A DNA stretch of 64,000 nt from an uncultured Clostridia bacterium (GTDB lineage Bacteria > Bacillota > Clostridia > Christensenellales > Aristaeellaceae), in the NCBI GenBank assembly GCA_934662505.1, contig CAKUKE010000008.1, positions 1,076 to 65,075 on the forward strand, read 5' to 3'. Positions 23,033 to 43,758 of this stretch are shown piece by piece. Below the pieces are notes generated by a model that was not told the origin of the DNA, searched no databases, and saw nothing but the letters and a program-made list of their open reading frames with translations. Within the stretch, counting starts at the first letter, position 1, and each line of letters starts with the position of its first letter. Made by a program: the position numbers and the translations under genes.

Positions 23033-23159
23033 TGCGTCCGACGGCTTTTTTCGGGGGAGGGCTCCTGATGATGCGGCTTTTTTCAGGCGCTGCGCCGCGG
23101 AGAAGCGCTCTTTTCGGGGGCACGTCCCTTTCCAATGCGCAGGCGGGGGGCGCTGACGA

Positions 23160-23193
23160 TAAAAAGAGAGCCGAAGCGACCCGGCTTCGGCTC
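23160..23193 (-). terminator. intrinsic terminator, ~400 nt downstream of the BadF-type gene stop
   Basis: Perfect 10-bp stem gagccgaagc/gcttcggctc with a 6-nt loop, followed on the minus strand by TCTTTTT. Confidence 0.65.
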
Positions 23194-24522: not shown

Positions 24523-24551
24523 GAGGGTGTCCTTTCCGGCTGAAGCCGAGG

Positions 24552-25016: not shown

Positions 25017-25089
25017 GACGTTTCGCGCTCCTTTGTGTTTCCCTTCGGACAGCAAGAGTATACCGTGTTTTTCCACGTTTGTCCAGCGG

Positions 25090-25344: not shown

Positions 25345-25418
25345 CCGCACAATCCCCCTTTTCCCCGGCTTCTGCCACAAGTCTATGCGGCAAAAGCGCG
25401 AAACGTGCGGACGAAGGG

Positions 25419-27654: not shown

Positions 27655-27977
27655 AGCATGCTCCTTTCGGTCGGACGCGCCGACGCGTGGAATATTGACG
27701 GTTCCCTCCGGCGCGTATGCAAAGGGGGAAGCCCTTTGACCGGAAGGGGCAGCAGGGGGCGACGGTCTTTCCGTCCGCAGCTGTTCCCCGGGCGGGAATT
27801 TGCGCCGCCCGCAGGGTAAAACGCGCTTGGCGTTTTTGCCGGGCCGATACGCCGAGCGGGGAACTGCCGTCCGAAATAGGATGAGGTGGGCGCCGGGCGG
27901 CTTCAAAGATGCGTCGATACGTCCTGCGCTTCATCGGCGGGAATCCGTCGTTCAGAAAGGACGGACCCCGGGCGATC

Positions 27978-28592
27978 TCAGGGGATGGGACGCGCCGCGG
28001 CCCGCTCCGCCATCAGCGCCCGGTACAGTGCCAGCACTTTTTCGGCGCTTTGCGCGGGAGAGCCGTCCGTGCGGATGACCACCTGACTGCGCCGGGCCTT
28101 TTCAAGGGCGGGCATCTGGCTGCGGATGCGGCGCAGCGCTGCGCCGCGGGTCAGACGATCCCTTGCCATCAGGCGGCGCAGCTGCTCTTTCTGCGGCACG
28201 TAGGCGCACCATACCCGGTCGCACCACGCGTCCATGCCGCACTCATACAGAAGGGGCGCGGAAAGAAATACCACGCCTTCCCCGGTACCGTCGATCAGGC
28301 GGCGGCACTCGGCCAAAATGAGGGGGTGCAGGCAGGCGTTGAGACGGGTTTTCTTTTCCGGGTCGGCAAAAACCATTTCGCCAAGGGCGCGGCGGTTCAG
28401 CGCTTCACCGTCGAAGACCCCGTCTCCGAACGCCTCGCGCAGGGCAGGCAGCCCCTTTCCGCCCGGCGCGGTCAGGGCGCGGGACACCTCGTCCGCATCC
28501 ACGACGCGCGCGCCCGCACCGAGCAGCGCGTCCGTCAGGTTGGTCTTGCCGCAGGCAATGCCGCCCGTTATACCAACGATCAGCACGCTCAT
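27978..28592 (-). CDS. coaE: dephospho-CoA kinase
   Basis: 204 aa with P-loop GITGGIACGKT. Overlaps the polA stop by 4 nt (conserved polA-coaE synteny). Confidence 0.93.
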   Translation of the reverse strand: MSVLIVGITGGIACGKTNLTDALLGAGARVVDADEVSRALTAPGGKGLPALREAFGDGVFDGEALNRRALGEMVFADPEKKTRLNACLHPLILAECRRLIDGTGEGVVFLSAPLLYECGMDAWCDRVWCAYVPQKEQLRRLMARDRLTRGAALRRIRSQMPALEKARRSQVVIRTDGSPAQSAEKVLALYRALMAERAAARPIP

Positions 28593-31129
28593 TTTGTTTC
28601 ATACCAGCTTTCGCCCGAATGCACGTCCGTTTTCAGCGGCACCTGAAGGGCGGCCGCGCCTTCCATGCAGCGGCGCAGCAGCGCCTCAACCTGCGCCACT
28701 TCCTCCGGCGGACATTCCACGATCAATTCGTCGTGCACCTGCAGGATCAGCCGCGCGCTGAGCCCTTCGTCCCGCAGCGCCCGGTGCACACGCACCATGG
28801 ACAGCTTGATGATGTCCGCCGCCGTTCCCTGCACGGGGGTGTTCATGGCCGCCCGCTCGCCGAAGGAGCGGATGTTGGCGTTGGCGCTTTTCAGCTCCGT
28901 CAACTGTCTGCGGCGACCCATGAGGGTGACGGCGTAGCCGTCCCGGTAGCCCTTTTGAACGGTCATATCCATAAACGTCTTGACGCCCGGGTAACGGTCA
29001 AAATAGCGCTCAATGAACTGCGCCGCTTCCCGGCGGGAAATGCCCAGATTGCGGCTCAGCCCGAATTCGCTGATGCCGTATACCAGCCCGAAATTGACGG
29101 CCTTGGCGCTGCGGCGCATGTCGGCCGTTACCTGCTCCATGGGCACGCCGTATACTTCCGCCGCCGTGCGGGTATGTACGTCCTGCCCCAGCCGGAAGGC
29201 GTCCACCATGTTCGCGTCGCCGGACATGTGCGCCAGCACCCGCAGCTCGATTTGGCTGTAATCCGCGTCGGACAGCCGCCAGCCTGCCCGTGGAACGAAG
29301 GCGCGGCGTATTTCCCGCCCCAGCTCCGTCCGGACGGGAATGTTCTGCAGGTTGGGCTCGCTGGAGGAGATGCGGCCGGTGGCGGTGGCCGTCTGGTCAA
29401 AGGTGGTGTGCACCCGCCCGGACGGATCCGTTTTGCGCAGCAGCGCGTCCACATAGGTGCCCGTCAGCTTGACCAGCTGCCGGTAGGCAAGGATCTTTTC
29501 AATGGCGGGGTGGCTGTCCCGGAGGTTTTCAAGGGTATCGGCGTCGGTAGCGTAGCCCTTGGACGTTTTTTTGCCGTGGGGCAGCTTCAAATCCTCAAAA
29601 AGCACCCTGCCCAGCTGCTGCGGACTGTTCAGGTTGAAGCCGTGCGCCCCTGTCAGGTCGTAGATTTCCTGCTTGAGGGTCTCCGCCCGGGCATGCCATT
29701 CTTCTCCCAGACGGCGCAGTACGCCGGGGTCGATCTGAAACCCGGTTTTCTCCATGTCGAAAAGCACGTAGGACAGGGGAATTTCCACCTCGTAGAGCAG
29801 CCGATCCATGCCCAGCGCGGGGATCTCGTCTTTCTGGCGGGCGTACAGCCGCCAGACCCCCTGCGCGTCGTCCGAGGTCAGCGCGGAAAGGGCATAGGAC
29901 TTTTCCTGCGGGTTCAGCAGGTACGCGCCCAGCATGGTGTCAAAGGCCACCTGCGGGAGGGGGAGCCCCTGCCCGTCGCAGATATGCATCAGCCGTTTGC
30001 CGTCGTGCACGATCAACGGCCGCTCAGACAGCGGCGCCCGCAGAGCGGCAAGGGTCTCCGCCGCGTCCGGCCCGTCGTCCAGCATGTCCCGTCGGAAGGT
30101 CAGGCAGACAAAGCGCGTCTCCGTGCACAGGGACAGCCCTTCCTCCGTCAGGTGCAGGCACAGCGGCGCGTCGCCCGCCTCGCGGATGAAGCGGAGCGCG
30201 TCCTCCGCTCCGGTCAGGGACTCGGCGGGCAAAACGGGCGCTTCGGTTCCGGCGCTTTCCGGCGCGGCGTCCGAAAGCGCTTCCAGCCGCTGGATAATGG
30301 CGTTGAGCTGATAGCGGCGCAGAACGGGCACGCCGTCCGTCAATCCGGCAAGCCGGTAATTGGAGGGGGTCAGATCCATGGGAACGGTGGGACGGATGGT
30401 GGCCAGATCCTTGGAAAAGACGGCCTTGTCCGCGTTGCCGCGGATCTTTTCACCCAGCTTGCCCTTGATGTCCGCCCCATGAGCCAGCACGTTTTCCAGC
30501 GTGCCGTATTCGTTCAGCAGCTTGACCGCTGTTTTTTCGCCCACCCCCGGCACACCGGGGATGTTGTCGCTCTGATCGCCCATCAGCCCTTTCAGGTCGG
30601 TGATCTGAGAGGGGGTCACGCCGAAGGCGGCGCGCACGGCCGCCGGGTCGAACAGGGTGGCTTCGCTGATCCCTTTCCGGGTGAAAAGCACCTGCACCTG
30701 ATTGTCCACTAACTGCAGCGCGTCCCGGTCGCCGGTGAGCAGCATGGCGGTCAGATCCCGGCTTTCGGCGCAGCGGCGGGCAACGGTGCCCAGAATGTCG
30801 TCCGCCTCAAACCCCGCCAGAGAGAAGGCGGCGATGTGCATGGCGGAAAGAATTTCCCGCAGCACGGGAAACTGCATGCGCAACTCCTCCGGCGTGGGCC
30901 TGCGTCCGGCTTTGTAGTCGGCGTACATCTGATGGCGGAAGGTGGGCGCGTGCTCGTCGAAGGCGACGACGGCATAACGGGGCTCGTAGTCTCTGAACAC
31001 CTTGAGAAGCATGGACAAAAAACCGTGCACGGCGTTGGTGCACACCCCGTCCGCATCCATGGGCGGCAGGGCGTGGAAGGCACGGTGCATCAGACTGTTG
31101 CCGTCAACGGCCAGAAACAGATCCCGCAT
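28589..31129 (-). CDS. polA: DNA polymerase I
   Basis: 846 aa with a 5'-3' exonuclease N-terminus and polymerase motifs DYSQIELRVLAH, RRSAKAVNFGLVYG, QVHDEL. Confidence 0.97.
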   Translation of the reverse strand: MRDLFLAVDGNSLMHRAFHALPPMDADGVCTNAVHGFLSMLLKVFRDYEPRYAVVAFDEHAPTFRHQMYADYKAGRRPTPEELRMQFPVLREILSAMHIAAFSLAGFEADDILGTVARRCAESRDLTAMLLTGDRDALQLVDNQVQVLFTRKGISEATLFDPAAVRAAFGVTPSQITDLKGLMGDQSDNIPGVPGVGEKTAVKLLNEYGTLENVLAHGADIKGKLGEKIRGNADKAVFSKDLATIRPTVPMDLTPSNYRLAGLTDGVPVLRRYQLNAIIQRLEALSDAAPESAGTEAPVLPAESLTGAEDALRFIREAGDAPLCLHLTEEGLSLCTETRFVCLTFRRDMLDDGPDAAETLAALRAPLSERPLIVHDGKRLMHICDGQGLPLPQVAFDTMLGAYLLNPQEKSYALSALTSDDAQGVWRLYARQKDEIPALGMDRLLYEVEIPLSYVLFDMEKTGFQIDPGVLRRLGEEWHARAETLKQEIYDLTGAHGFNLNSPQQLGRVLFEDLKLPHGKKTSKGYATDADTLENLRDSHPAIEKILAYRQLVKLTGTYVDALLRKTDPSGRVHTTFDQTATATGRISSSEPNLQNIPVRTELGREIRRAFVPRAGWRLSDADYSQIELRVLAHMSGDANMVDAFRLGQDVHTRTAAEVYGVPMEQVTADMRRSAKAVNFGLVYGISEFGLSRNLGISRREAAQFIERYFDRYPGVKTFMDMTVQKGYRDGYAVTLMGRRRQLTELKSANANIRSFGERAAMNTPVQGTAADIIKLSMVRVHRALRDEGLSARLILQVHDELIVECPPEEVAQVEALLRRCMEGAAALQVPLKTDVHSGESWYETK

Positions 31130-31241
31130 GGCAAAATCACCTCCTTCCCATTATAACACAGGGGTCGGACGGGGTAAAGCAAAAAAAGGCGCACGCCCTT
31201 CCAGCATAAGGAGGGCATGCGCCGGAGAAGCGTTTGTGCAG

Positions 31242-32168
31242 TTACTGGCCGGGCAGGCGCACGGTGACGCCGGGAGCAAAGTCGTCCGGAGCCAGACAGG
31301 GGTTGGCGCGCAGCAGCTGTCCCACGGGCAGCCGGTAGGCCAGCGCCACGCTCTCCAGCGTGTCGCCCGTCTGCAGGGTGTAGGTGGGCGGAACGGGGCA
31401 GGGCTGGTTCTGCTCGGGGATGCACAGGGTATCGCCGCCCCGGATCGTATCCAGATTGGTGGTGGCGTTGGCGCGCTGGAGGGTGTAGTAGCTCAGATTG
31501 TACTTCAGCTGCAGGTCGGCGGCGGTCTGATCGTTCTGCACCACGGTGCGGCGGTTGGCCGGGCAGGCGTCTTCCGGCCGGGGACAGGCGTCAGGAGCCT
31601 GGGAAGCGCCGCCGGATGTGCCGCTGTTGCCGGTATCGCCGGTCGTGCCGCCGGATGTACTGCCGCTGCCGGTGCCGCCGGTCGTACCGCCGGATGTACC
31701 GCCGCTGCCGGTATCGCCGGTCGTGCCGCCGGATGTGCCGCTGTTGCCGGTGCCGCCGGTCGTGCCGCCGGATGTGCTGCCGCTGCCGGTATCGCCGGCC
31801 GTATCGCCGGATGTACTGCCGCTGCCGGTGCCGCCGGTCGTACCGCCGGATGTACCGCCGCTGCCGCCGGATGTACCGCCGGATGTACTGCCGCTGCCGG
31901 TATCGCCGGCCGTGCCGCCGGATGTGCTGCCGCTGCCGGTATCGCCGGCCGTGCCGCCGGATGTACCGCCGCTGCCGCCCTCGTCCCGGCGGGCGGGAAT
32001 GCACAGCACGTCGCCCACCATCAGCCGGGCGGGGGGATGATCGGGGTTCAGCGCGACCAGATCGCCCACGTCCACCTGAAATTTCTGGGCGATGGAGTAA
32101 TAGCTGTCGCCGCTGACCACGGTGTAGCGGGATGCGCAGGTGCGGGTCTCGTCCATAAAATGCGCCAC
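31242..32168 (-). CDS. LysM-domain protein with a central Gly/Ser/Thr-rich repeat linker
   Basis: 308 aa with one N-terminal LysM (YTVVSGDSYYSIAQKF...) and two C-terminal LysM-like units (YTLQTGDTLESVALAY...). These are separated by ~125 aa of (STSGGTxGDTGSG)n. Confidence 0.8.
   Translation of the reverse strand: MAHFMDETRTCASRYTVVSGDSYYSIAQKFQVDVGDLVALNPDHPPARLMVGDVLCIPARRDEGGSGGTSGGTAGDTGSGSTSGGTAGDTGSGSTSGGTSGGSGGTSGGTTGGTGSGSTSGDTAGDTGSGSTSGGTTGGTGNSGTSGGTTGDTGSGGTSGGTTGGTGSGSTSGGTTGDTGNSGTSGGASQAPDACPRPEDACPANRRTVVQNDQTAADLQLKYNLSYYTLQRANATTNLDTIRGGDTLCIPEQNQPCPVPPTYTLQTGDTLESVALAYRLPVGQLLRANPCLAPDDFAPGVTVRLPGQ
31606..31980. repeat. 39-bp in-frame tandem repeat (~9.5 copies) inside the LysM gene
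   Basis: The ccggatgt landmark recurs at 31612, 31651, 31690, 31729, 31768, 31807, 31846, (31867, 31879), 31918 and 31957. This gives a strict 39-bp period with one shortened unit. Confidence 0.9.
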
Positions 32169-32235
32169 TTCCTTTTCGCTTTTTTCATCAACAGCCTATG
32201 CGAAAAGGGGGCAAAGTGTGACAGATGCGGAAAAA

Positions 32236-32928
32236 TCAGCAGCCGCCCTGATGGATGCGCTCCATCCGCTGATCCAGTTCGGCGCACATGCGGGCGCAGT
32301 CCTGCAATTCAAGCACGGTCTTCTCCCGATCCGTCAGATCCTTTTTATAGGCGATCTTGTGCTCCAGACTGGCCCACCAGTCCATGGCAATGGTGCGCAG
32401 CTGCACCTCCACTTTCATTTTTCGCGTCTGGTTGTGCAGAAAAATGGGAATCTCCACGATCAGGTGCAGGCTGCGGTAACCGTTCTCCTTGGGCGTCTGA
32501 ATGTAGTCCTTGCGGGTGATGAGCGTCACGTCGTCCTGCCGCAGGAGCGCGTCGGCCAGCATGTAAATGTCGCTGGGAAAGGCGCAGATGACCCGAATGC
32601 CCGCGATGTCGTGCAGGCTGCGCTCGATGCTTTCCACCGTCAGGGGAATCCCCTTGCGCACCGCCTTGTCCACGATGCTCTCGGGGGTTTTGATGCGGGA
32701 CTTGATGGTCTCGATGGGGTTGCGGTCGTACAGAAGAGACAATTCCTCGTTGAGCACGTTGAACTTGGTCTCCACCTCCATCAGCGCGCAGCGGTAACAG
32801 GCCATCAGCTCCCGGTAGGGCTGGGCGTAGCTTTTGATCCATTCTTTTATTTCGCTCTGGGTGAGCCGCTCGGCCAGCGCCCGCTCCAGAGAAGGGCTTT
32901 CGCCCGGCAAAAAATCGGTTTTCTGCAT
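32236..32928 (-). CDS. small alarmone synthetase (RelP/RelQ-type GTP pyrophosphokinase)
   Basis: 230 aa from the internal ATG 32928 (GGAAGGAG RBS). Synthetase motifs DIAGIRVIC, ENGYRSLHLIV, VEVQLRT. Confidence 0.88.
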   Translation of the reverse strand: MQKTDFLPGESPSLERALAERLTQSEIKEWIKSYAQPYRELMACYRCALMEVETKFNVLNEELSLLYDRNPIETIKSRIKTPESIVDKAVRKGIPLTVESIERSLHDIAGIRVICAFPSDIYMLADALLRQDDVTLITRKDYIQTPKENGYRSLHLIVEIPIFLHNQTRKMKVEVQLRTIAMDWWASLEHKIAYKKDLTDREKTVLELQDCARMCAELDQRMERIHQGGC

Positions 32929-32941
32929 GCTGCTCCTTCCA

Positions 32942-34885
32942 TCAGCGGGGCGTATCCGGCCATGCGGGCGCAGGCGCGTTAAGCGCGTACAGGTGCTGCC
33001 AGGAACGCCAGAACAGGCAGTGGTCGAAATAACGCTCCAGATAGATTTCACGTTCAGAAAAACCATCCATCAGCGCCCGAAGCGCGGGGGAACCGTCGCC
33101 GCCCCGGGCCGTCTGCGCCGCCGCTTCGGCAAACCGGCAGGCCAGATCCGCATGATGCGCAAGCAGCCGCCAGCAGACGGTGCGGGCGCGGACGCTCTGC
33201 ACCCGATGGGCGCGCAGCACGGGGCGGAACGCCTCCGTCCACTCGCGTACGGTATCCAGCTTTTCTGCGACAGCCGGGTTGTAAAGAAGACCGCGGGCTT
33301 CATCTGCGCTGAGGGAGCCTTCAAAGTAAGCCGCAGGCATGCGCTGACTCAGACCGTCCAGATAGTCCCACACTTTCCGCCAGTCGGGACCGTAGGCGTG
33401 AGAAAAATAGTCTTCCGCCAGCGCATCAAAGGAGACGGAGGCGTCAAACAGGGTCTCGGCGTATACGTAGTAACAGAACCCGCTGGGAAAAAAGCTGCGT
33501 TGGGAACCGTCCTCCACGATGCCGCTGAGTCCGTGGCGCTTCAGCCCCCGGACGTCGTCATAAATCAGCCGGGCATGGCGCACCGCGCCGAAGTCCCGGT
33601 ACTGGGAGAACCAGAAGTGATATTCGTAGGCAAAGGCGTCCCCGGGGAAAATCTGCCGCCATGTGTCCAGATGCGCCAGACACGCCCCCATGTTTCTGGG
33701 CGGGCGTACCCGGTTGAGCACAAAGGGCTGCATGGCGCCGGGGTCGGCGGGCTGGGCATAGCCGCTCATATAGCTGCGCCCAAGGGGAGCAAACAGCATC
33801 GTGAACCGGGACGGGTTGCGCAGACGCGCCTCTCCGGGCGCCCACATGGTCTCATAGTACAGAATGAATACGATGCGGGTGGGCAGCTGGGCGCGGGTCA
33901 GCTCCTCGTCTATATCGTTGAGCAGCGTCACATACCAGTCGGATACCGACCGGGCGCGGCAGGCGGGGCATTCGCAGTGGTTCAGGTTGTCGTCGGCCAG
34001 CCAGACGTGGAGAAAATCGACGTTCTGATGACGGCGGGCGTAGTCGGTTACATAGCGCGCCACGATGCGCCGCCCCTCGCTGTTGGAAAAGCAGATGTTG
34101 GTGTTCAGCGCCACGCCGCCGTGGAAGCAGCGCCGGCCGTCTACCTGCGCGATGAAGGGACGCGCCGCCTCGGGCACATCCTCGTCGCCGGGCGTCCAGC
34201 CGCTGCTGCTGTCCAGCCCGAAGGGCTCCGCGGTCCAGCCGTGTCCCATGTCGTGAAAGCGCAGACCGCGGCGGGCGATTTCCGCCTCGCACTGCCGTTT
34301 CCATTGCAGCACGGTGGGCTTGTCCACCGGCTCGGGCGGGCGGCGGGTGTTCATGGCGTGGCTGTAGTATTCATCGTAATAATGGAACGGCACGTCAAAT
34401 TCCATCATGTAGGTGTTCAGACCGATCTTGGGCGAAAAATCGATGGTGTCCAGCATGGCCTGCTGGCTCTCGGCGCCTTCGTTGCACTGGCCGCGGAAGC
34501 GGTGGTCGGCCAGCTTGCGGAAGGAAACGGGGGGCAGTTCTGCCAGCACGGGCACATATTCGCCGTCCACTCCCGGAAAAAGGAAGCGGCAGCCGCACAG
34601 GCGCAGATAACGGTAGACCGCGATGAGCACCGCGCCAGGGTTGGTGCCGGCGATGACGCCGCCGCAGGCATCCGTGCGGATGACGATCAGGTCGTCCAGC
34701 GCAGGGTCGGCGGCTTCCCGGTCGTCGATGTGCAGATCCCGCGTCAGCCCTACGCGGAACCCCTCCCCCCCGGCGGCGACGGCTACGTCCCCTCCCTCCG
34801 GGAGCAGCATGCGCAGATATTTTTTCAGTTCGCTCGCCGCAAAATGAACGGCGGGGTGGTCGCTGACAGGGATGATGCGCAGCAT
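32942..34885 (-). CDS. DUF4838-like putative glycoside hydrolase
   Basis: 647 aa from ATG 34885 (AAGGAG RBS; MLRIIPVSDHPAVHFAASELKKYL...). Resembles DUF4838 / GH20-like catalytic-domain proteins; this family call is from memory. Confidence 0.5.
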   Translation of the reverse strand: MLRIIPVSDHPAVHFAASELKKYLRMLLPEGGDVAVAAGGEGFRVGLTRDLHIDDREAADPALDDLIVIRTDACGGVIAGTNPGAVLIAVYRYLRLCGCRFLFPGVDGEYVPVLAELPPVSFRKLADHRFRGQCNEGAESQQAMLDTIDFSPKIGLNTYMMEFDVPFHYYDEYYSHAMNTRRPPEPVDKPTVLQWKRQCEAEIARRGLRFHDMGHGWTAEPFGLDSSSGWTPGDEDVPEAARPFIAQVDGRRCFHGGVALNTNICFSNSEGRRIVARYVTDYARRHQNVDFLHVWLADDNLNHCECPACRARSVSDWYVTLLNDIDEELTRAQLPTRIVFILYYETMWAPGEARLRNPSRFTMLFAPLGRSYMSGYAQPADPGAMQPFVLNRVRPPRNMGACLAHLDTWRQIFPGDAFAYEYHFWFSQYRDFGAVRHARLIYDDVRGLKRHGLSGIVEDGSQRSFFPSGFCYYVYAETLFDASVSFDALAEDYFSHAYGPDWRKVWDYLDGLSQRMPAAYFEGSLSADEARGLLYNPAVAEKLDTVREWTEAFRPVLRAHRVQSVRARTVCWRLLAHHADLACRFAEAAAQTARGGDGSPALRALMDGFSEREIYLERYFDHCLFWRSWQHLYALNAPAPAWPDTPR

Positions 34886-35145
34886 AAAAATCTCCTTTTC
34901 CGCGGACGGAGGCGTCCGCCCCTTTGCTGATGCGGTTGTTGCAAACGCATTGAGTATAGGGGAAAACCGGGAAAAAGTCAACGTTTCGCCCGGATATGCC
35001 ATGAAAATGCCGTTTTTCCCCTCCGCCTTCTTGCACGGGGAAAAGGCGTATGCTATAATGAAGCGAAAACCTGCGGCGCAGAAAACGCGCGCTGCGGGCA
35101 AAGGTACGAGCGAAACCGGCAATAAGCGGAAAGAGGAGAAAAGCC

Positions 35146-36210
35146 ATGCGTGTAAGGCTGGAAAACCTGACCAAAAAATTTGGCGCCACGGTCGCGGTGG
35201 ATCACTTTAACGCCGTTCTGGAGGACGGCGAGCTGATCTCCCTGCTGGGGCCCTCCGGCTGCGGAAAATCGACCATACTCAACATGCTGTCGGGCATCAT
35301 TCCCGTGACGGAGGGAAAAATCTTCTTTGACGACGAGGACGTGACCGCCCTGCCGCCCGAACGCAGGGGAATCGGTCTGGTGTTTCAGAACTATGCGCTG
35401 TATCCCCATATGACGGTGCTGCAGAACATCTGCTTTCCGCTGGAAATTCAGAAAGTGCCCAAGGCCGAGCGGGTGGAGCGGGCGATGGATATGGCGCGCC
35501 TTGTGCACGTGGACGACCTGATCAACCGCCGCCCCAAGGAGCTCTCCGGCGGCCAGCAGCAGCGGGTGGCCATCGCCCGTGCGCTGGTGAAGGAACCCCG
35601 GCTTCTTCTGCTGGATGAACCCCTGTCCAACCTGGACGCCCGTCTGCGGCTGGAAATGCGGGAGGAGATCCGCCGCATCCAGCAGAAAACGCAGGTGACC
35701 ACCGTGTTCGTCACCCACGATCAGGAAGAGGCCATGTCCATTTCCGATCATATCGTGCTGATGAAAAAGGGCGTGTTCCAGCAGTACGACGCGCCCCAGC
35801 ATCTGTATGACCAGCCGGCCAACCAGTTTGTGGCGGATTTTCTGGGCAACCCGCCCATCAACCATATTCCCGGCGTCATTGCGAACGGCGCGCTGGCGGT
35901 GGACGGCGGCGCGACCATCGCCCACCCCCTGTGCGCAAAGGCGCCCGAGGGACAGAAGGTGGTCTTTGCCCTCCGGGCGGAAAGCGCCTTTATCCCTGAA
36001 AACGGCGAGGCGCCCGTGGCGGAATGCACCGTGAAGAGCACCTACACCATGGGCAAGGAAGAACTGGCCTACCTGACCGTGGGTGCGGCGGAGTTCCGGG
36101 CGTATCTGTCCGCCGAGGAGCACCTGAAACCCGGTCAGACGGTGCCCATCGCGCTGCGAAACCGCGGTGTGTTCCTCTTTGATGCGGAAACGGGGGCGCG
36201 CTATCAATGA
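35146..36210 (+). CDS. sugar ABC transporter ATP-binding protein (MalK/MsmX/UgpC type)
   Basis: 354 aa with Walker A GPSGCGKST, signature LSGGQQQRVA, Walker B LLLDEP and a C-terminal TOBE-like domain. Confidence 0.93.
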   Translation: MRVRLENLTKKFGATVAVDHFNAVLEDGELISLLGPSGCGKSTILNMLSGIIPVTEGKIFFDDEDVTALPPERRGIGLVFQNYALYPHMTVLQNICFPLEIQKVPKAERVERAMDMARLVHVDDLINRRPKELSGGQQQRVAIARALVKEPRLLLLDEPLSNLDARLRLEMREEIRRIQQKTQVTTVFVTHDQEEAMSISDHIVLMKKGVFQQYDAPQHLYDQPANQFVADFLGNPPINHIPGVIANGALAVDGGATIAHPLCAKAPEGQKVVFALRAESAFIPENGEAPVAECTVKSTYTMGKEELAYLTVGAAEFRAYLSAEEHLKPGQTVPIALRNRGVFLFDAETGARYQ

Positions 36211-37451
36211 CGGAAACAAGAAAACTGCCCAGAAGGCTGCGCCGGCAGAGTCAGGCGACCCTGTACGTGCACACCGCCCTGTTCGCCCTGATCACGCTGG
36301 CGCTGCTGGCCCTGGCGGTGTACGGCGTCATGGGACTGAAAAACGCCGTGGCGGCGGACGGTACGCCCCTCACATGGGAGCAGGCGGTGGACAATGCCGC
36401 CACCCAGACCCTTGCCCGCAACTACAAAAAGCTCTCCGCCGGGGACAAATTGCGCTATAACGCGCAGGATAACTGGGTCGCCCTGCTGGTGGTGGCCGTG
36501 CTGGCCGGCGTGTTTACCGGGGTGCTTCTGAAAATGGCGTGCAGCCGGGACGTGTCCAGAAAGCATACGGTGTGCGGCTATCTGGAAGCGCTGGACTACC
36601 TTCTGCCCTTTCTGTTCGGACTCGTGCTGTTCACGGTGTACCCCATTGTGAACGTGGTGACGCTGGCGTTCAAGGAAAAGTACAATTACATTTACGACAG
36701 CTTTGCCTCGGTGGGCATTGATAATTTCCGCAAGGTGCTGAACGACCGCAATTTTATCAACGCGCTGAAAAACACCGCCCAGTACGTGGTGTTCGTGGTG
36801 CCCATCTCTACCTGCCTGTCGCTTGCGGTGGCCAACCTGCTCAACCGCAAGCTGAAGTTTTCCGCACTGTTCCAGACGGCCTACTTCCTGCCCATGGTGA
36901 CGGCGGCTACGGCTACGGGTCTGGCGTGGAAGTTCATGTTTCAGGCGGACTACGGTCTGATCAACTACCTGCTGGGCTTCTTCGGCGTGGAGCCCATCCG
37001 CTGGCTGACCGCCAGCCGCTACAACATCTGGGCGCTGATCATCTACGGCATCTGGAACATCATGCCCTTCACCATCATCCTGCTGCTCTCCGGACTGCAG
37101 AATATCGACGAGACCTACTACACCGCCGCGCGGGTGGACGGTGCCAAGGGAAAGCGCATTTTCTTCCGCATCACGGTTCCCCTGCTGGCGCCCACCATTT
37201 CTCTGGTGCTGATCATCAACTCCATTTCCTCGGCCAAGGTGTTCAACGAGATTTTCCCCCTGTTCAACGGCAACCCCGGCGCCCATGAGAACCTGTACAC
37301 CATGGTGTATTACATTTACAACTACGCCTTCAACGCCGGCGGTTCGGTGGATATGGGACGGGCGGCCGCAGCGGCCATCATTCTGTTCTTCATCCTGCTT
37401 GTCTTTACCATGCTGCAGCTGCTGGTACAGCGCAAGTGGCAGTATCATTGA
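36207..37451 (+). CDS. carbohydrate ABC transporter permease (MalF-like, extended N-terminus)
   Basis: 414 aa, multi-TM, with an EAA-loop region ...YYTAARVDGAKGKRIFFRITVPLLAP.... Overlaps the ATPase stop by 4 nt. Confidence 0.9.
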   Translation: MTETRKLPRRLRRQSQATLYVHTALFALITLALLALAVYGVMGLKNAVAADGTPLTWEQAVDNAATQTLARNYKKLSAGDKLRYNAQDNWVALLVVAVLAGVFTGVLLKMACSRDVSRKHTVCGYLEALDYLLPFLFGLVLFTVYPIVNVVTLAFKEKYNYIYDSFASVGIDNFRKVLNDRNFINALKNTAQYVVFVVPISTCLSLAVANLLNRKLKFSALFQTAYFLPMVTAATATGLAWKFMFQADYGLINYLLGFFGVEPIRWLTASRYNIWALIIYGIWNIMPFTIILLLSGLQNIDETYYTAARVDGAKGKRIFFRITVPLLAPTISLVLIINSISSAKVFNEIFPLFNGNPGAHENLYTMVYYIYNYAFNAGGSVDMGRAAAAAIILFFILLVFTMLQLLVQRKWQYH

Positions 37452-37465
37452 GGGAGGTGGCCTGC

Positions 37466-38335
37466 ATGAGCGTACAACAGCCGTCCCTGAAGGAAAACGC
37501 GTGGCGCGACCGGGTGGCTCCCGGGATCATCCGCTTCATTCAGTATTTCCTTCTGACTGCGGGAGCCCTGCTGATGGTGTTCCCCTTCTACTGGATGTTT
37601 ACCACCGCCTTTAAGACCGACGCCCAGGCGGTGCTCTTCCCGCCCAAGTGGTGGCCGGATACCTGGCAGTACCAGAACTTCCAGCGCGCCTTTGACGAAG
37701 CACCCTTCGCCACCTATTTCCTCAACTCCATCATCATCACCGCCGCTTCCGTTTCGCTGACGGGCGTTGTGACCATTCTGGGGGCGTTCGCCTTTTCCAG
37801 ACTGCGCTTCCCCGGCAGAACGCTGGTGTTTTCCATGCTGCTGTCTCTGATGATGGTGCCCTTTGAAATGCTGGTCATCACCAACTACACCACCATTGCC
37901 AAGTTAGGGTGGATGGATACGAAGATTGCCATGGTGGTGCCCTTTATGAGCAGCATTTTCTACACCTATATCCTGCGGAATTTCTTCGACTCCATCCCCG
38001 ACAGCCTGTACTGGTCGGCACGGGTGGACGGTTCCAGCAACTGGCACTATCTGTGGCGGGTCATGGTGCCCATCGCCCGGCCTTCCCTGATGACCATTCT
38101 GCTGCTCAACGCGCTGTCCTCCTGGAACTCCTTCATGTGGCCCATGCTGGTGACCACCACCAAGGTGAACCGTACATTGACCCTCGGTCTGTACGTGTTT
38201 ACCAGCGAAGACGGCGCGGTACCCAACATGTACATGGCGGCGTCCACCATCGTGGTGCTGCCCGTCATTATTCTGTTCCTGTTCTGCCGGAAGCAGATCG
38301 TCAACGGCGTGGCGCGCGGCGGCATCAAGGGATAA
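37466..38335 (+). CDS. carbohydrate ABC transporter permease (MalG-like)
   Basis: 289 aa from ATG 37466 (GGGAGG RBS) with EAA loop ...LYWSARVDGSSNWHYLWRVMVPIARP.... Confidence 0.9.
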   Translation: MSVQQPSLKENAWRDRVAPGIIRFIQYFLLTAGALLMVFPFYWMFTTAFKTDAQAVLFPPKWWPDTWQYQNFQRAFDEAPFATYFLNSIIITAASVSLTGVVTILGAFAFSRLRFPGRTLVFSMLLSLMMVPFEMLVITNYTTIAKLGWMDTKIAMVVPFMSSIFYTYILRNFFDSIPDSLYWSARVDGSSNWHYLWRVMVPIARPSLMTILLLNALSSWNSFMWPMLVTTTKVNRTLTLGLYVFTSEDGAVPNMYMAASTIVVLPVIILFLFCRKQIVNGVARGGIKG

Positions 38336-38393
38336 AAAAGGCTGGCGGAAAAGCAAGGGAATACGGTGCGTGACAAGTTGAATGCATCAAAAC

Positions 38394-38423
38394 AAAAGCC
38401 GGGGCATACGCCCCGGCTTTTTT
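38394..38423. terminator. bidirectional intrinsic terminator
   Basis: gccggggc/gccccggc stem with a 4-nt loop, flanked by an A-run and a T-run. Lies between the convergent ABC operon (+) and alaS (-). Confidence 0.8.
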
Positions 38424-38628
38424 GCGTGATTGCTGGAGAAAGCGTTCTTTTTCCGCGTTTTTATTTTATGAAAGAAATACAGGCAAGCCGCTCTTTGACG
38501 GCACCTCCGGCAGCGCAAGTCTGGGCAGCAGACGGTCGACTGCGCTGTCGCCGCACTGCCGCCCGGCCTGCGCCGGAACGGTTTCCAGCTGCCCGGCGCT
38601 GCGGGTGCTGCGCTTCGGATGGAAGGGC

Positions 38629-40599
38629 TTACGCCTTGCGGCCGATGGTGGCTTTGATGCGGCGCACACCGGCAGAGGAGGATTCTTCCTTCTGGATCTT
38701 GAAGGAGACCAGATCGCCCGTGTTGGAGGCGTGGGGGCCGCCGCAGATCTCCTTGGAGTAGGGACCCATGGTGTACACCTTGACCCGGTCGCCGTACTTG
38801 CTTTCAAACAGACCCATGGCGCCCTGCGCCTTGGCTTCTGCCACGGTCATTTCCTCCAGCGTGACGGGCACCCTGGCCTCAATGGCCTCGTTGACCAGCT
38901 TTTCTACCTGCGCCAGCTCCTCGGGGGTCATTTTGCGGCCGAGGGTGAAGTCGAAACGGAGCCGCTCGGCGGTGATGTTGCTGCCCTTCTGGTGCACCTC
39001 GTCGCCCAGCACCTTGCGCAGGGCGGCTTGCAGCAGGTGAGTGGCGGTGTGCAGACAGGCGGTCTGCTCGCTGGCGTCCGCCAAACCGCCCTTGAAGCGC
39101 TGCTCCGCGCCTGCGTGGCTGGTCTCCTGATGCTGTTTGAAGCGCTGGGCAAAGTCGTCCGCGTCCACGGTCAGCCCCTTTTCGGCGGCCAGCTCGGTGG
39201 TCATCTCAATGGGGAAGCCGTAAGTGTCATACAGCTTGAAGGCGCTGCGGCCGTCCATGACGGACAGGGTGGCAAGACGCGCCTGCAGGGCGGCCTTGAG
39301 CCCTTCCCGGTCGCCGGCGTCCGCCGCTTCGATGATGGGCAGCATGTCGGGGGAGGGGCGGAGCTTTTTGCTCTGGGCGCTCTCCCGGGCGGCAGCCACC
39401 ATGTCGTCCGCGTTCAGCAGCCCCTCCAGCAGGTTGCGGGTGCTGCAGATGTTGTTGTAGAGCTTGTCAAATTCCTTTTCGCCCTGCTTGAGGGTGCGGG
39501 CAAAGCGGCCTTCCTCCAGCTTCAGCTGCTCCAGCACGAAGGCGCTGTTTTCGGTCAGTTCGGGGTATACGTCCTTGTACTGGTCGATGATGACCTTGGC
39601 GATCTCGCAGGTGAACCCTTCCTGCAGCCCCAGCTGCATGCCGTAGCGCACAGCGCGGCGGATGAGGCGGCGGAGAATGTAGCCCTGATCCACATTGGAG
39701 GGGCTGACGCCGCGGGGGTCGCCCAGAATGAAGGTGGAGGTGCGCATATGGTCGGCTACGATGCGGAAGGCCTTGGTGTTTTCGTCGTCGGGGGTGTACT
39801 TTTTGCCGGAGAGTTCTTCAATGCGCGCCAGAATGTTGGCGAACAGGTCGGTCTCGTACACGCTCTTTTTGCCCGTCAGCACGCAGATGGTGCGCTCCAG
39901 ACCCATGCCGGTGTCCACGTTTTTCTGCTGCAGAGGCAGGAAGGAGCCGTCCGCCTGCTTGTTATACTGCATGAACACATCGTTCCAGATCTCCAGATAC
40001 GCGCCGCATTTGCAGGCGGGGGAGCAGTTCGGTCCGCAGGGCTTTTTAACGATCATGAACATTTCGCTGTCGGGGCCGCAGGGACCGGTCACGCCGGCGG
40101 GACCCCACCAGTTGTGCTCCTTGGGCAGGTAGAAAATGTGGTCGTCCTTCACCCCGCAGGAGCGCCACAGCTCGGCGGCTTCCTCATCCCGGGGACAGTC
40201 CCCGTCGCCTGCGAACACGGTGAAGGCCAGCTTGTCCTTGTCGATGCCCAGCCACTTTTCACTGGTCAGAAATTCCCAGCTCCAGGGAATCATTTCCTTC
40301 TTGAAATAGTCGCCCAGGCTCCAGTTGCCCAGCATTTCAAAAAAGGTCAGGTGGCTCATGTCGCCCACGTCGTCGATGTCGCCGGTGCGGATGCACTTCT
40401 GCACGTCGGTCAGGCGGTGACCGGCGGGGTGCTTCTGACCCAGCAGGTAGGGCACCAGAGGATGCATGCCTGCGGTGGTAAACAGCACGGTGGGGTCGTT
40501 CTCCGGGATGACGGAGGCGGAGGGAATGACGGCGTGTCCCTTTTCCTTGAAGAATTGCAGGAACAGGGCGCGCAGCTCGTTGGCAGTCATGGATTTCAT
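38629..40599 (-). CDS. alaS: alanine--tRNA ligase, short form (catalytic + tRNA-recognition + editing domains, no C-Ala/DHHA1 domain)
   Basis: 656 aa from ATG 40599 (GGAAAGGAG RBS), starting MKSMTANELRALFLQFFKEKGH.... Has FTTAGM and WNDVFMQY motifs, plus editing-domain HTATHLLQ and CGGPH. The protein ends ~35 aa after CGGPH. Confidence 0.9.
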   Translation of the reverse strand: MKSMTANELRALFLQFFKEKGHAVIPSASVIPENDPTVLFTTAGMHPLVPYLLGQKHPAGHRLTDVQKCIRTGDIDDVGDMSHLTFFEMLGNWSLGDYFKKEMIPWSWEFLTSEKWLGIDKDKLAFTVFAGDGDCPRDEEAAELWRSCGVKDDHIFYLPKEHNWWGPAGVTGPCGPDSEMFMIVKKPCGPNCSPACKCGAYLEIWNDVFMQYNKQADGSFLPLQQKNVDTGMGLERTICVLTGKKSVYETDLFANILARIEELSGKKYTPDDENTKAFRIVADHMRTSTFILGDPRGVSPSNVDQGYILRRLIRRAVRYGMQLGLQEGFTCEIAKVIIDQYKDVYPELTENSAFVLEQLKLEEGRFARTLKQGEKEFDKLYNNICSTRNLLEGLLNADDMVAAARESAQSKKLRPSPDMLPIIEAADAGDREGLKAALQARLATLSVMDGRSAFKLYDTYGFPIEMTTELAAEKGLTVDADDFAQRFKQHQETSHAGAEQRFKGGLADASEQTACLHTATHLLQAALRKVLGDEVHQKGSNITAERLRFDFTLGRKMTPEELAQVEKLVNEAIEARVPVTLEEMTVAEAKAQGAMGLFESKYGDRVKVYTMGPYSKEICGGPHASNTGDLVSFKIQKEESSSAGVRRIKATIGRKA

Positions 40600-40619
40600 G
40601 CGGATTCTCCTTTCCATTC

Positions 40620-40877
40620 AAAAAAAGTGCGCCTGTCCGTTTTCGAAGACGAACAGACGCACATGCATTCGCGGTACCACTTCGATTGACGGCGGCTGAA
40701 AACCGCACGTCCACCTCAAGCCGGATAACGGGACGGCCCCGACCCGCCTTTTTGACCGGCGGGCAGCTTACCGGCGGCTGTTCTGCCCGCCTGACGCGCC
40801 GGCCTCGCACCTTCTGCCGGCTCGCTTGGCGCAGATACGGGCGTACTTTTCCGGATCTTCGCTTTGGTTATGCAATT
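40620..40877 (-). promoter_or_regulatory. T-box riboswitch leader (Ala specifier) of alaS
   Basis: The minus strand carries a GCGAAGA K-turn, an AAAAGUA loop side and an AGCGAG bulge. Candidate specifier GCC-G (40778-40776) sits next to the CCGG helix. The T-box sequence AAGUGGUACCGCG is followed by an 11-bp terminator stem and UUUUUUU (40626-40620). Confidence 0.85.
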
Positions 40878-40883
40878 GGGATT

Positions 40884-40912
40884 ATTATAGTCACCCCGGA
40901 AGCGATTGTCAA
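40884..40912 (-). promoter_or_regulatory. consensus sigma-A promoter of the alaS T-box leader
   Basis: Minus strand reads TTGACA (40912-40907), 17 nt spacer, TATAAT (40889-40884). Confidence 0.8.
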
Positions 40913-40924
40913 GGGCTGCGCGGG

Positions 40925-41863
40925 TCACAGCGGCCGAACCACCGTGCGGGCAGTCAGCGGCACCGCGTCCTCCGCGCTGCACAGCGCGGGGGCGTCCGTC
41001 ATGACGGCCGCGCAGGACAGGGCGACACCCTGCCGGAGCATGTCCATGGGGGACAGACCGTTTACCAGCCCGGCGCACAATCCGGCCAGCAGCGCGTCGC
41101 CGGCGCCGTAGACGCTGCGTACGGGCACCTCCGGCGGGGTGCAGATCCATGCGGAGCCGGGCAGGATCAGATACGCGTCCTCCGCGCCCCGGGACAGGCA
41201 GACGCAGCCCGTGCCGGTATCCGTCATCAGCCGCCGTACGGCGGTCAGCGTTTCCTGTGGGTTGGCGGGATCCAGACCGGTCAGCGCCCGGAATTCCTGA
41301 CGGTTGGGCTTGATCAGGTCGGGCCCGGCAGCAACGGCCGCCCGGAGCGCCTCCCCGTCGCAGTCCACCGCTACCCGGCAGCCGGGATGGGCGGCGCGCA
41401 CCCTGCGCAGCACGTCCCCATAAAAGGTAGAGGGCGCACCCTGCGGGAGGCTGCCCGTCAGCACGAGCAGGCGGCTGTCCGACGCTGCGTCGATCAGCGC
41501 CTGCGCCATGTGAGCAAGGAGCGGTTCGGGGAGGGGGCGGCTTTCTTCGTTGATCTCGACCGTGGCGCCGGAGCGGGCGTTTCGTATTTTCAGGTTGACC
41601 CGCAGGGAACCCGGCGCGTCGGTCAGCAGGGCGGGCACGCCGTGAGCCGCCGCTAAAAGGCGGACGGGGCTGCCGCTTTCGGGAAAGTCCGTGCTGACCA
41701 GCCGTACGGGTACGCCCAGCGCCCGCAGCGCCAGCGCCACGTTGATTCCCTTGCCCGCCGTATCCGCCCGCAGCACGCGCCCGCGGTTCGTTTTATCCGC
41801 CTGAAAATCGGGCAGCGCCAGCGTTTTATCCACGCAGGGGCTGAGGCATGCCACGGTAATCAT
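40925..41863 (-). CDS. PfkB-family sugar kinase (1-phosphofructokinase/tagatose-6-P kinase type)
   Basis: 312 aa with motifs GKGINVA and GAGDALLAG. Confidence 0.85.
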   Translation of the reverse strand: MITVACLSPCVDKTLALPDFQADKTNRGRVLRADTAGKGINVALALRALGVPVRLVSTDFPESGSPVRLLAAAHGVPALLTDAPGSLRVNLKIRNARSGATVEINEESRPLPEPLLAHMAQALIDAASDSRLLVLTGSLPQGAPSTFYGDVLRRVRAAHPGCRVAVDCDGEALRAAVAAGPDLIKPNRQEFRALTGLDPANPQETLTAVRRLMTDTGTGCVCLSRGAEDAYLILPGSAWICTPPEVPVRSVYGAGDALLAGLCAGLVNGLSPMDMLRQGVALSCAAVMTDAPALCSAEDAVPLTARTVVRPL

Positions 41864-41891
41864 GCAAAACGCCTCTTTCTGTGATGGCTTG

Positions 41892-42410
41892 TTATAGATG
41901 GAGCGGTTTTTTCAGCCGGCGCGCCAGCAGAAGCGCCAGCGCGGTTTTGGCCGCATCGCCGGGCAGGAAGGGAATGACGCAGGCGGACAGGCTGACTGCC
42001 AGCGTCTTGCCCGTCAGATGCACGAACCACGCGGTGCCGAGCGCATAGCAGGCGGCGATGCCCAGCACCATGAACAGCAGCATTTGCCACACGTTTTTGC
42101 CGCGCCCCAGACCACTGATGGCGACGCAGAGCAGATAGCCGATCAGGTATCCGCCGGTCGGCCCCAGCAGCGCGCCCGCGCCGCCCCGGAAGGAGGCAAA
42201 GACGGGGACGCCCGCCAGCCCCAGCAGCAGATAACAGCCGATGCTCAGGCACCCGGAGACGGGTCCCAGCAGCGCGCCGCAGAGCAGCACGGGCAGCAGC
42301 GCCAGATTGATGGGCACGGGGCCGATGGGGATGCTGATCCAGGAGCAGACTGCCGTCAGGGCGGCAAACAGGGCGCACAGCGCCAGATTCCGGGTTGAAA
42401 AGGTTTTCAT
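41892..42410 (-). CDS. bioY: biotin transporter BioY (ECF S-component)
   Basis: 172 aa with 5-6 TM segments and a typical BioY sequence ...PVPINLALLPVLLCGALLGP...GGYLIGY.... Confidence 0.9.
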   Translation of the reverse strand: MKTFSTRNLALCALFAALTAVCSWISIPIGPVPINLALLPVLLCGALLGPVSGCLSIGCYLLLGLAGVPVFASFRGGAGALLGPTGGYLIGYLLCVAISGLGRGKNVWQMLLFMVLGIAACYALGTAWFVHLTGKTLAVSLSACVIPFLPGDAAKTALALLLARRLKKPLHL

Positions 42411-42469
42411 GGACAGGCGACTCCTTTGGTATGGCTTCTGTGAATCAGAGCGCTAAGTAGTATACTATA

Positions 42470-42960
42470 ACCGAAAAAAGGGTGTCAAGAACAAATGACG
42501 CGCGGGAAGATTGCATAAAATCATTTCAAAAATATGACAAAAATCGATTCCTGTGAAAAATATGTTAATTCTTTTTCGCGGCTTTGCAAAAGGAACGGTT
42601 TAAAGTTATCCACAACGCAAATTGTGGATAACTTTGCCCTTTTCAGGCCACTTTTCCACTAAAGCAGCGGAAAATAAGGTATTTCCACACCTTTTTTGTG
42701 GATAACTCTGTGGATAATGTGGAAAAGTCCCTGAACGGTTCAAAAGGGACGGGAGACAAAATGTGCATGGAGGCGCGTCAAAAAAAGGCGAAGGACGGGG
42801 AAAAAACGAAGGGAACGGGAGGGAAAACGCAGAGAACGTGTCAAAAAAGCGAGAAAGGGGAAAGCCTGTTCGGTGGAAAAGTCTGTTGACAACCGGTCGG
42901 GGCGGCGGTGGATAACCCCTGCGGAAAAAGTTCAAACTTTTTTGACTTGACAGGGGGTTT
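42470..42960. other. candidate replication origin (oriC): AT-rich block plus DnaA-box cluster
   Basis: Perfect TTATCCACA/TGTGGATAA boxes lie at 42606-14, 42623-31, 42697-705 and 42709-17. Boxes with 1-2 mismatches lie at 42652-60, 42681-89, 42718-26, 42872-80 and 42907-15. Positions 42511-42600 are ~70% A+T by hand count, with AAAAATATG at 42528 and 42556. The site coincides with the coding-strand switch of the window. Confidence 0.65.
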
Positions 42961-43011
42961 GCTTCTGCATGCCGCGCATATATTCATGCGGAGGTGAACG
43001 CTGTGGGGAGG

Positions 43012-43758
43012 ATGCTCAAGGAGCGGGCGATCATTGCCGCCTGCGCGTTTGTTTTGCTGCTGGGTGTGTCGGCGGTGGCGCCCCGACCGGCGCTTCCTGC
43101 CCGTTCGCCCCGTCCGGTGGATGCTGCGGAACCGTCGGGACAGCTTCAGGGACGGGTGATCTGCGTGGATCCAGGGCACGGGGGTCAGGACGGCGGCGCC
43201 CGGGCGCGGGACAGCGGCACCTGGGAGCGGGAAATAAACCTGCAGGTGGCGCGCCGTCTCCGTCAGACGCTGGAGGAAGCGGGGGCGACGGTGGTGATGA
43301 CGCGGGAGGATGAAGGGGCACTGGCGGATGGAAAGCGGGAAGACCTGACGCTGCGCATGGAAAAGGCTGCGGCGGCGGGGGCGGATATGCTGCTGAGCAT
43401 CCACATGAATGAGTACCGTTCCCGCCGGGAGAGCGGCCCGCAGGTGTTTTATCGGGCGGGGCAGGAGGAAAGCCGGCTGCTGGCTGCCGTTTTGCAGGAG
43501 GCGCTCATTGAGGGTCTGGCGCCGGAAAAGCGGCGGGAAGCCATGGCAGGAGATTACTACGTGCTGTCTCTGGATATTCCCTCAGTGCTGGTGGAGTGCG
43601 GCTTTATCTCCAACAGTACGGAAGAAAAGAAACTGCTGAACGAAGATTATCAGGGAGAGATGGCGCGTAGCCTGACGCAGGGCGTGGAGCGGTATCTGGC
43701 GCTGGCCGCGGCGCGGGGAGAAAGCGGCAATTCAATGGAAGAAAAGGTGACGAAATAA
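43012..43758 (+). CDS. cwlD: N-acetylmuramoyl-L-alanine amidase, CwlD-like (germination-specific)
   Basis: 248 aa from ATG 43012 (GGGGAGG RBS). N-terminal TM, then Amidase_3 motifs VCVDPGHGGQDGG, LSIHMN, VLVECGFISN. Confidence 0.85.
   Translation: MLKERAIIAACAFVLLLGVSAVAPRPALPARSPRPVDAAEPSGQLQGRVICVDPGHGGQDGGARARDSGTWEREINLQVARRLRQTLEEAGATVVMTREDEGALADGKREDLTLRMEKAAAAGADMLLSIHMNEYRSRRESGPQVFYRAGQEESRLLAAVLQEALIEGLAPEKRREAMAGDYYVLSLDIPSVLVECGFISNSTEEKKLLNEDYQGEMARSLTQGVERYLALAAARGESGNSMEEKVTK

Follow-up and report, generated by a model that had tools for sequence, protein, structure and literature searches.

The closest described counterparts of the locus reported here are the DnaA-box clusters (DBCs) of Bacillus subtilis. 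Six intergenic DBCs, all outside the replication origin oriC, are stably bound by DnaA. They regulate neighbouring genes, among them sda, ywlC and yydA, and together hold initiation back; the genes downstream of DBCs differ from one species to another (PMC3245932). Through sda they also provide a precedent for a link between sporulation and replication. In this work we describe a cluster of predicted DnaA boxes in a stretch of 64,000 nucleotides (hereafter the window; contig CAKUKE010000008.1, positions 1,076 to 65,075) from an uncultured Clostridia bacterium of the Aristaeellaceae. The cluster lies between bioY and cwlD. Within a clade of uncultured Clostridia from gut and rumen, it is probably a conserved DnaA-box cluster outside the origin, placed in the regulatory spacer that precedes the sporulation gene cwlD. 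It probably makes the expression of cwlD, the availability of DnaA, or both, depend on DnaA.

The cwlD cluster resembles the B. subtilis DBCs in several respects. It is intergenic, off-origin on our reading, made up of several consensus boxes that appear to be maintained by selection, and found beside varied genes across lineages. Its anatomy, between the bioY promoter and a conserved promoter block of cwlD, also fits the placement of DBCs in the promoter regions of their neighbours. It differs from the B. subtilis DBCs in its tie to cwlD, a gene not reported as a DBC neighbour, and in its fixed seven-box architecture, which is conserved in many uncultured lineages and includes an invariant 29-nt triple box. 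Our literature search returned no paper that pairs cwlD with DnaA boxes.

A second point of comparison is the bipartite oriC of Firmicutes, e.g. B. subtilis and C. difficile, where fields of boxes lie upstream of dnaA and between dnaA and dnaN (PMC7561715). The cwlD cluster matches these in the number and quality of its boxes, in carrying both orientations and in having an adjacent AT-rich segment. Unlike them, it has no dnaA or dnaN, no skew switch and no DnaA-trio or basal unwinding system (BUS) beside the boxes, and its relatives lack the strand switch. A BUS consists of one or more DnaA boxes, a short GC spacer, at least three DnaA-trios (5'-TAG-like) and an AT-rich DNA unwinding element (PMC8287927). 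The datA and DARS loci of Escherichia coli are, like the cwlD cluster, clusters of DnaA boxes away from the origin, and they modulate DnaA activity. These loci rely on IHF or Fis sites and a specific box geometry. Neither such sites nor such a geometry is evident at the cwlD cluster, where no search aimed at them was made, and the two belong to different phyla. Beyond the box consensus there is no sequence relationship between them.

DnaA boxes of the bioY-cwlD spacer

The spacer and its principal boxes are as follows.

42411..43002, no strand: bioY-cwlD intergenic spacer, 592 bp, with all of the DnaA-box module inside it (from gene calls and family matches; the homologous spacer is 630-700 bp in relatives)
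42606..42614, plus strand: DnaA box 1, perfect; inverted with respect to the relatives' consensus TGTGGA(C/A)AA at the same place (box scan and alignment)
42623..42631, minus strand: DnaA box 2, perfect; kept in relatives, with a column conservation of 0.89 (box scan and alignment)
42652..42660, plus strand: DnaA box 3, decayed to TTTTCCACT, two mismatches; the relatives have a perfect TTATCCACA, conservation 0.97 (alignment)
42697..42726, minus strand: triple box, boxes 4-6, head-to-tail, TGTGGATAA-CTC-TGTGGATAA-TGTGGAAAA; identical in all relatives
42884..42892, minus strand: relic of box 7, the ancestral promoter-proximal box, now TGTTGACAA with two mismatches; aligns with the relatives' TGTGGATAA (alignment)
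42907..42915, minus strand: one-mismatch box GGTGGATAA near the cwlD promoter block; apparently replaces box 7 (alignment)

Perfect boxes (TTATCCACA/TGTGGATAA) begin at 42606(+), 42623(-), 42697(-) and 42709(-). Two boxes with one mismatch begin at 42718 and 42907, and six with two mismatches at 42552, 42652, 42681, 42872, 42884 and 42920. The members of the triple box start at 42697, 42709 and 42718, a spacing of 12 and 9 bp. An initial annotation of the window, which put the site forward as a candidate oriC, had counted four perfect boxes, at least five boxes with one or two mismatches and a single other perfect 9-mer, in nusB; this inventory was recovered in full. The fifth perfect box (62495-62503) is isolated inside nusB, and is probably a chance occurrence or a weak site.

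These boxes are far more frequent and more concentrated than expected. The whole window has 5 perfect boxes against 0.2 expected, a number reached in 0 of 100 shuffles, and the weighted box score per 400 bp is 22 at the cluster against a background of 1.06. Within 310 bp the site has four perfect boxes and two with one mismatch, the kind of box cluster found at Firmicute origins. Its score is comparable with those of true clusters upstream of dnaA in our control loci (31 in L030 and 26 in L036), and this origin-like density is a point in favour of an origin at this site.

In the far-left flank (L133, -15641 to -10877) there are five one-mismatch boxes over ~5 kb, roughly twice the background density; these are more than 800 bp apart and form no cluster. 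At the left edge of the block of minus-strand genes described below, neither an inverted partner nor a second box cluster was found.

Conservation of the module upstream of cwlD

The module was compared with its counterparts in related lineages. The genes and elements concerned are these.

43003..43758, plus strand: cwlD, germination-specific N-acetylmuramoyl-L-alanine amidase (TIGR02883, E = 1.6e-54)
41892..42410, minus strand: bioY, the left neighbour in this species only; relatives have a hypothetical gene of 177-209 aa and dus (gene calls)
42924..42953, plus strand: conserved block GAAAAAGTTCAAACTTTTTTGACTTGACAG directly upstream of cwlD, a putative promoter or a site for a regulator (alignment, conservation 0.91)
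42744..42868, no strand: purine-rich spacer of this species only, standing in for the relatives' AT-rich palindromic stretch (alignment)

The nearest CwlD homologues outside the species are 57-66% identical. We looked up seven CwlD lineages (57-65% identity; L095/96, L097/98, L099, L131, L132, L135 and L136), and in all seven the gene is preceded by a spacer of 630-700 bp in which the boxes of the window recur at matching relative positions. This architecture consists of two to three boxes, a perfect inward-facing box, the triple box in identical form and, ~100 bp ahead of the start codon, a further box. At least 17 related, non-redundant lineages have this layout ~100-400 bp upstream of cwlD. 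When metagenomes were scanned for the 29-nt triple box, 31 loci were returned, and the order dus(-), hypothetical gene of 177-209 aa (-), cluster, cwlD(+) is seen in at least 20 of them.

An alignment of 17 non-redundant modules, with a mean pairwise identity of 0.53, was used as a footprint. Column conservation was as follows.

DnaA boxes 1-3 and the triple box: 0.87-0.99 (17 modules)
Block GAAAAAGTTCAAACTTTTTTGACTTGACAG(CATA) upstream of cwlD: 0.91 (17 modules)
Spacers: 0.53 (17 modules)

Within the species, five aligned sequences (the window and four strain contigs) have no variants within the boxes; the same-species contigs (L081-L090) are 97-99.9% identical and too similar for footprinting. 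The footprint indicates that box positions and orientations are under purifying selection across lineages with otherwise scrambled spacer DNA.

The module of the window has diverged from this pattern in several ways. Box 1 is inverted and box 3 has two mismatches. The ancestral box 7 is degenerate, with a new one-mismatch box 23 bp closer to the promoter. A purine-rich insert replaces the AT-rich palindromic stretch, and bioY replaces the neighbouring dus and hypothetical gene. No homologue of either replaced gene was found in 81 kb of the extended region described below. A model of a simple, single inversion was rejected on the same grounds.

Box decay and turnover of this kind, at boxes 1, 3 and 7, would suit a relic. 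On that account the cluster is the functionless remains, or the detached half, of an ancestral bipartite origin, i.e. an oriC1-like box field left behind when dnaA-dnaN moved. To place gyrBA in context we used the 27 closest species-level genomes by GyrB (83% identity downwards), which are uncultured Clostridia and Christensenella-like metagenome-assembled genomes (MAGs). None of the 27 has dnaA-dnaN-recF in the 10 kb upstream of gyrB; that gyrBA stands apart from dnaA is therefore a trait of the clade, not a local peculiarity, and it implies that the origin region has been reshuffled in this clade, a point in favour of a relic. However, a relic would decay, and the boxes are conserved at 0.87-0.99 against 0.53 for the spacers across 17 lineages. 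Box clusters are also absent upstream of gyrB in all 27 genomes; it is cwlD, and not gyrBA, to which the cluster is linked. Taken together, we find a relic hardly credible.

Gene order around the module differs between relatives. The rpiB...uvrC-NYN block next to cwlD is inverted between the right flanks of L097 and L135. The alaS gene lies ~2 kb from cwlD in both L136 (12966-14936) and the window (38629-40617), but the two differ in the side on which it lies and in its orientation relative to cwlD. The cwlD module forms a small island in which synteny is conserved, and rearrangement breakpoints lie to either side of it.

A role at the cwlD promoter is suggested because the module stays with cwlD through the rearrangements on both sides, and because a box is kept or replaced beside the cwlD promoter block. 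We propose that DnaA, probably as DnaA-ATP, would nucleate on the perfect boxes and the head-to-tail triple box, and that a DnaA oligomer would then form across ~300 bp. Such a complex would lie between two divergent promoters, one serving cwlD and the other serving, ancestrally, the operon of the hypothetical gene and dus and now bioY. It would modulate transcription from both according to the level and activity of DnaA. It would also hold DnaA away from the true origin, as the DBCs of B. subtilis do.

This last activity might be the principal one. A possible alternative, if on balance an unlikely one, is that the main function of the cluster is to control how much DnaA is available or active, as with DBC[yydA-yycS] or E. 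coli datA. The boxes would then soak up or inactivate DnaA after initiation with little effect on cwlD transcription, and the position next to cwlD would be incidental. Most of the high-affinity boxes are indeed 270-390 bp upstream of cwlD, far from its promoter, and the module has outlived the replacement of its left neighbour. The 29-nt triple box also occurs in several unrelated intergenic contexts, which fits the report on DBCs (PMC3245932). On the other hand, titration alone does not require a fixed neighbour, and the linkage to cwlD has been kept through rearrangements on both sides in every lineage examined. Furthermore, a box has been kept or replaced ~10-35 bp upstream of the conserved cwlD promoter block. 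We therefore prefer a regulatory cluster tied to cwlD. DnaA titration is likely as an additional or alternative role. The alternative offered by the initial annotation, a non-origin cluster like the B. subtilis DBCs, is supported, and can be sharpened to a conserved module tied to cwlD.

The other contexts of the exact triple box, TGTGGATAACTNTGTGGATAATGTGGAAA, are also intergenic (L100, L102, L105, L108-L111, L116, L122 and L124). They include the spacers between trmE and a xanthine permease gene and between a GGDEF gene and a gyrB-like gene, as well as sites next to rsmH, a HAD hydrolase gene and an M48 peptidase gene. Three of the loci (L102, L116 and L122) share an extra box at -73, as in the window. 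These Clostridia seem to use the 29-nt triple box repeatedly as a high-affinity DnaA module, and it is a simple probe for further DnaA sites in their genomes. A conserved, predicted DnaA-binding module at a sporulation gene also implies that in this large clade DnaA may have regulatory targets beyond those known from Bacillus.

Skew, gene orientation and the question of an origin

Replication asymmetry was analysed over 90.4 kb, from -16.8 kb to +73.6 kb in window coordinates. The left extension comes from the window's own scaffold (ERZ28614073 scaffold_75, 196,342 bp), on which exact protein matches place the window at record positions 32221-96220, reverse-complemented. MAG GCA_022768335.1 represents the same species. 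The right-hand 9.6 kb come from another contig of the same species, which matches the last 3 kb of the window exactly. GC skew was taken gene by gene at four-fold degenerate codon sites, so that replication asymmetry could be told apart from the effect of gene orientation. Mean coding-strand values are listed below.

Plus-strand genes left of the cluster: n = 17, mean GC skew +0.233
Minus-strand genes left of the cluster: n = 24, mean GC skew -0.092
Plus-strand genes right of the cluster: n = 24, mean GC skew +0.239
Minus-strand genes right of the cluster: n = 2, mean GC skew -0.04

The plus-strand genes on the two sides are indistinguishable (p = 0.66), while the minus-strand genes on the left differ from the plus-strand genes on the left (p = 5e-7) and on the right (p = 3e-7). 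In a weighted regression of 60 genes, at the 81-kb stage of the analysis, strand alone gave an R2 of 0.55 and an origin at 42.6 kb an R2 of 0.04; with a codon-bias covariate added to strand, 72% of the variance is explained. The cumulative G-C curve, from -16.8 to +73.6 kb, rises monotonically, more gently in the minus-strand block. The initial annotation had named GC skew among the checks on an origin here, and over 90.4 kb there is neither a skew switch nor a cumulative minimum at the site. As a positive control we used 21 loci with dnaA-adjacent origins, where the pooled skew is +0.06 for minus-strand genes on the left, -0.01 for plus-strand genes on the right and -0.17 for minus-strand genes on the right. 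The four-fold test therefore behaves as expected at real origins. Since the skew has the same polarity on both flanks of the cwlD cluster, the plus strand is the leading strand on both sides and forks traverse the cluster from left to right. The real oriC would lie to the left, upstream of window coordinate -16.8 kb.

The initial annotation had also described a sharp strand switch, with 26 of 32 coding sequences on the minus strand to the left of the site and 17 of 18 on the plus strand to the right. As a bias within the window this holds (24 of 29 and 16 of 17 in our own gene calls), and the divergence of genes at the cluster is what an origin would produce. Its sharpness as a chromosomal switch does not hold, as the site is the edge of an island of minus-strand genes.

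-1348 to 42410 in window coordinates (in-window 1..42410), minus strand: island of minus-strand genes, 44 kb, with 24 minus-strand and 5 plus-strand genes (gene calls, L091/L133)

The island ends ~1.3 kb past the left edge of the window. It is flanked by 12 consecutive plus-strand genes at the left and by at least 31 kb of plus-strand genes at the right. Because its minus-strand genes have a lagging-type GC skew at codon sites (-0.09), their head-on orientation looks long-standing and not the product of a recent inversion. Genes for pyruvate:ferredoxin oxidoreductase and PPDK, polA, clpB, alaS, nrdD/G, obgE and nrdR are among those in the island.

In some relatives, too, the module is found where strand and skew do not switch. 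In L135, 19 of 20 genes over 20 kb share one strand to the left and right of the module, cwlD being the only exception; the minus-strand genes left and right do not differ in skew (p = 0.49) and cumulative G-C has no extremum at the module. In L097 all nine minus-strand genes (6 left, 3 right) share a slightly negative coding skew and the plus-strand genes average +0.08, and the skew behaviour of L099 and L136 is similar to that of L097 and L135. The right flank of the module is mostly minus-strand in L097 and L136. With the island edge in the window and the arrangements in L135, L097 and L136, a divergent leading-strand orientation is not conserved at the module. Where the ancestral arrangement is kept (L095, L097, L099, L131 and L132), dus and the hypothetical gene have lagging-type skew relative to cwlD.

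Neither does the gene content suggest an origin. Searches with tblastn using Bacillus DnaA, DnaN and RecF found none of the three in the window, in the first 81 kb of the extended region or in loci L001-L130, and DnaA- or DnaN-type Pfam domains are absent from the genes called in L131-L136 and in the added 9 kb. This bears out the earlier statement that dnaA, dnaN and recF are missing from the window, and the rnpA-rpmH-dnaA-dnaN context of Firmicute origins is absent at the cluster. The gyrB and gyrA genes do begin 2.3 kb to the right, as had been reported, and their proximity is another point for an origin. A plasmid origin or that of an integrative and conjugative element was considered and rejected, as there is no rep gene and the context is one of housekeeping genes.

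There remains the AT-rich flank of the boxes, which on the origin hypothesis would be the unwinding element.

42511..42600, no strand: AT-rich stretch, ~72% A+T over 90 bp, upstream of the leftward promoter (composition scan; moderately conserved in relatives)

This stretch, in which the 90 bp at 42515 reach 72%, adjoins box 1 and coincides with the region upstream of the strong leftward bioY promoter. It does have the two copies of AAAAATATG, 28 bp apart, that had been reported (42528 and 42556). It had been called the most AT-rich part of the window; the richness stands (72%), the rank does not, since it comes second to the promoter region in the mutY-groES spacer at 52915 (73%). Other promoter regions are thus equally AT-rich. 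A scan for a BUS at the cluster gave only loose (NAN)3 matches that overlap a box or an A-tract, and the arrangement of box, GC spacer, TAG-type trio and AT-rich segment was not found there; the Bacillus control, L036, shows the canonical element.

An oriC of unusual architecture, as first proposed, is therefore not borne out: the skew does not switch, the strand switch is the edge of an island and L135 has the module without a switch. It could be rescued only if at least 59 kb of the left flank had been rearranged very recently, and this would leave L135 unexplained. We regard it as very improbable that the site is the replication origin of the chromosome, uncoupled from dnaA and with 42511-42600 as its unwinding element.

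Some observations weigh against reading the cluster as a non-origin regulatory site. The AT-rich stretch is moderately conserved beside the boxes. AT skew at four-fold sites leans slightly towards an origin (R2 0.06 vs 0.02), a lean that is uninformative given too few A/T sites, the dominance of codon bias in highly expressed genes and an R2 of at most 0.07 under either model. In L095, L131 and L132 weak or noisy skew does not separate the two models. If the island is what it seems, 24 genes have long been in head-on orientation, which is unusual for a Firmicute. The case against an origin is built on the skew over 90 kb, the positive control and the comparative context, and not on locating the real oriC or dnaA. 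Lastly, we infer DnaA binding, the transcriptional effects and titration at the cluster.

For origin prediction in MAGs the locus is a counter-example, in that origin-grade boxes, an AT-rich flank, a local strand switch and nearby gyrBA coincide at a site that is nevertheless, we argue, not an origin. Orientation-controlled four-fold skew on one scaffold, together with a comparison of relatives, exposes this.

Edge elements of the module and surrounding genes

The promoter elements at the two edges of the module are given below.

42459..42488, minus strand: bioY promoter, sigma-70-type, TTGACA-N18-TATACT (promoter scan, 11/12 matches)
42977..42983, plus strand: CATA -10-like element CATATAT, conserved (alignment)

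The -35 hexamer of bioY aligns with a conserved TGTCAAG that forms the left edge of the module in relatives. On the cwlD side, the CATATAT element is followed by a GGAGG ribosome-binding site (42990-42994). The corresponding arrangement in relatives is GCATA-N17-CATAC, which resembles the B. subtilis consensus of forespore sigma-G/F promoters. An inverted pair of CTTGACAGCAT elements brackets the box cluster at both edges of the module in relatives, and the copy on the cwlD side is preceded by a near-invariant, palindromic AAAAAGTTCAAACTTTTTT. These edge elements may serve the two divergent genes jointly, as a promoter or as a site for a regulator.

A tentative and rather unlikely extension of the regulatory reading is that the module acts as a switch between replication and sporulation. 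DnaA on the seven fixed boxes would gate two divergent, similar promoters, each with CTTGACAGCAT followed by a CATA-type -10 and therefore sigma-F/G-like, which would drive cwlD and the operon of the hypothetical gene and dus. If so, functions in cortex maturation would be expressed only at the appropriate replication or DnaA status of the forespore. This would also add a new member to the DnaA regulon, with a logic like that of sda but late in sporulation.

Scans of the bioY-cwlD spacer for Rfam families, tRNAs and terminators gave nothing relevant. A 40-codon open reading frame (ORF) at 42761-42883 was rejected as a gene, since the segment is species-specific and the ORF is not conserved. 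Across the whole 64 kb no Rfam family reaches its gathering score, T-box leaders included, and there are no tRNA genes; the T-box result covers alaS (38629-40617) and hisS-aspS (57384-59970). In the strain contig L082, alaS is broken into two ORFs (539 and 122 aa) by either a frameshift or an assembly error.

The ~720 bp between cwlD and a gene for a 74-aa helix-turn-helix protein (43759-44480) have no confident gene. Public gene calls place a minus-strand ORF of 205 aa at 43649-44266, which overlaps the 3' end of cwlD and has no Pfam match. Finally, the window has two tandem repeats. One, at 51228-51360, has two copies of a 67-nt unit and overlaps the first bases of the 3' end of mutY (51339-52829). 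The other, at 31608-31977, has 9.6 copies of a 39-nt unit with 84% matches and lies in a minus-strand gene for a LysM protein.

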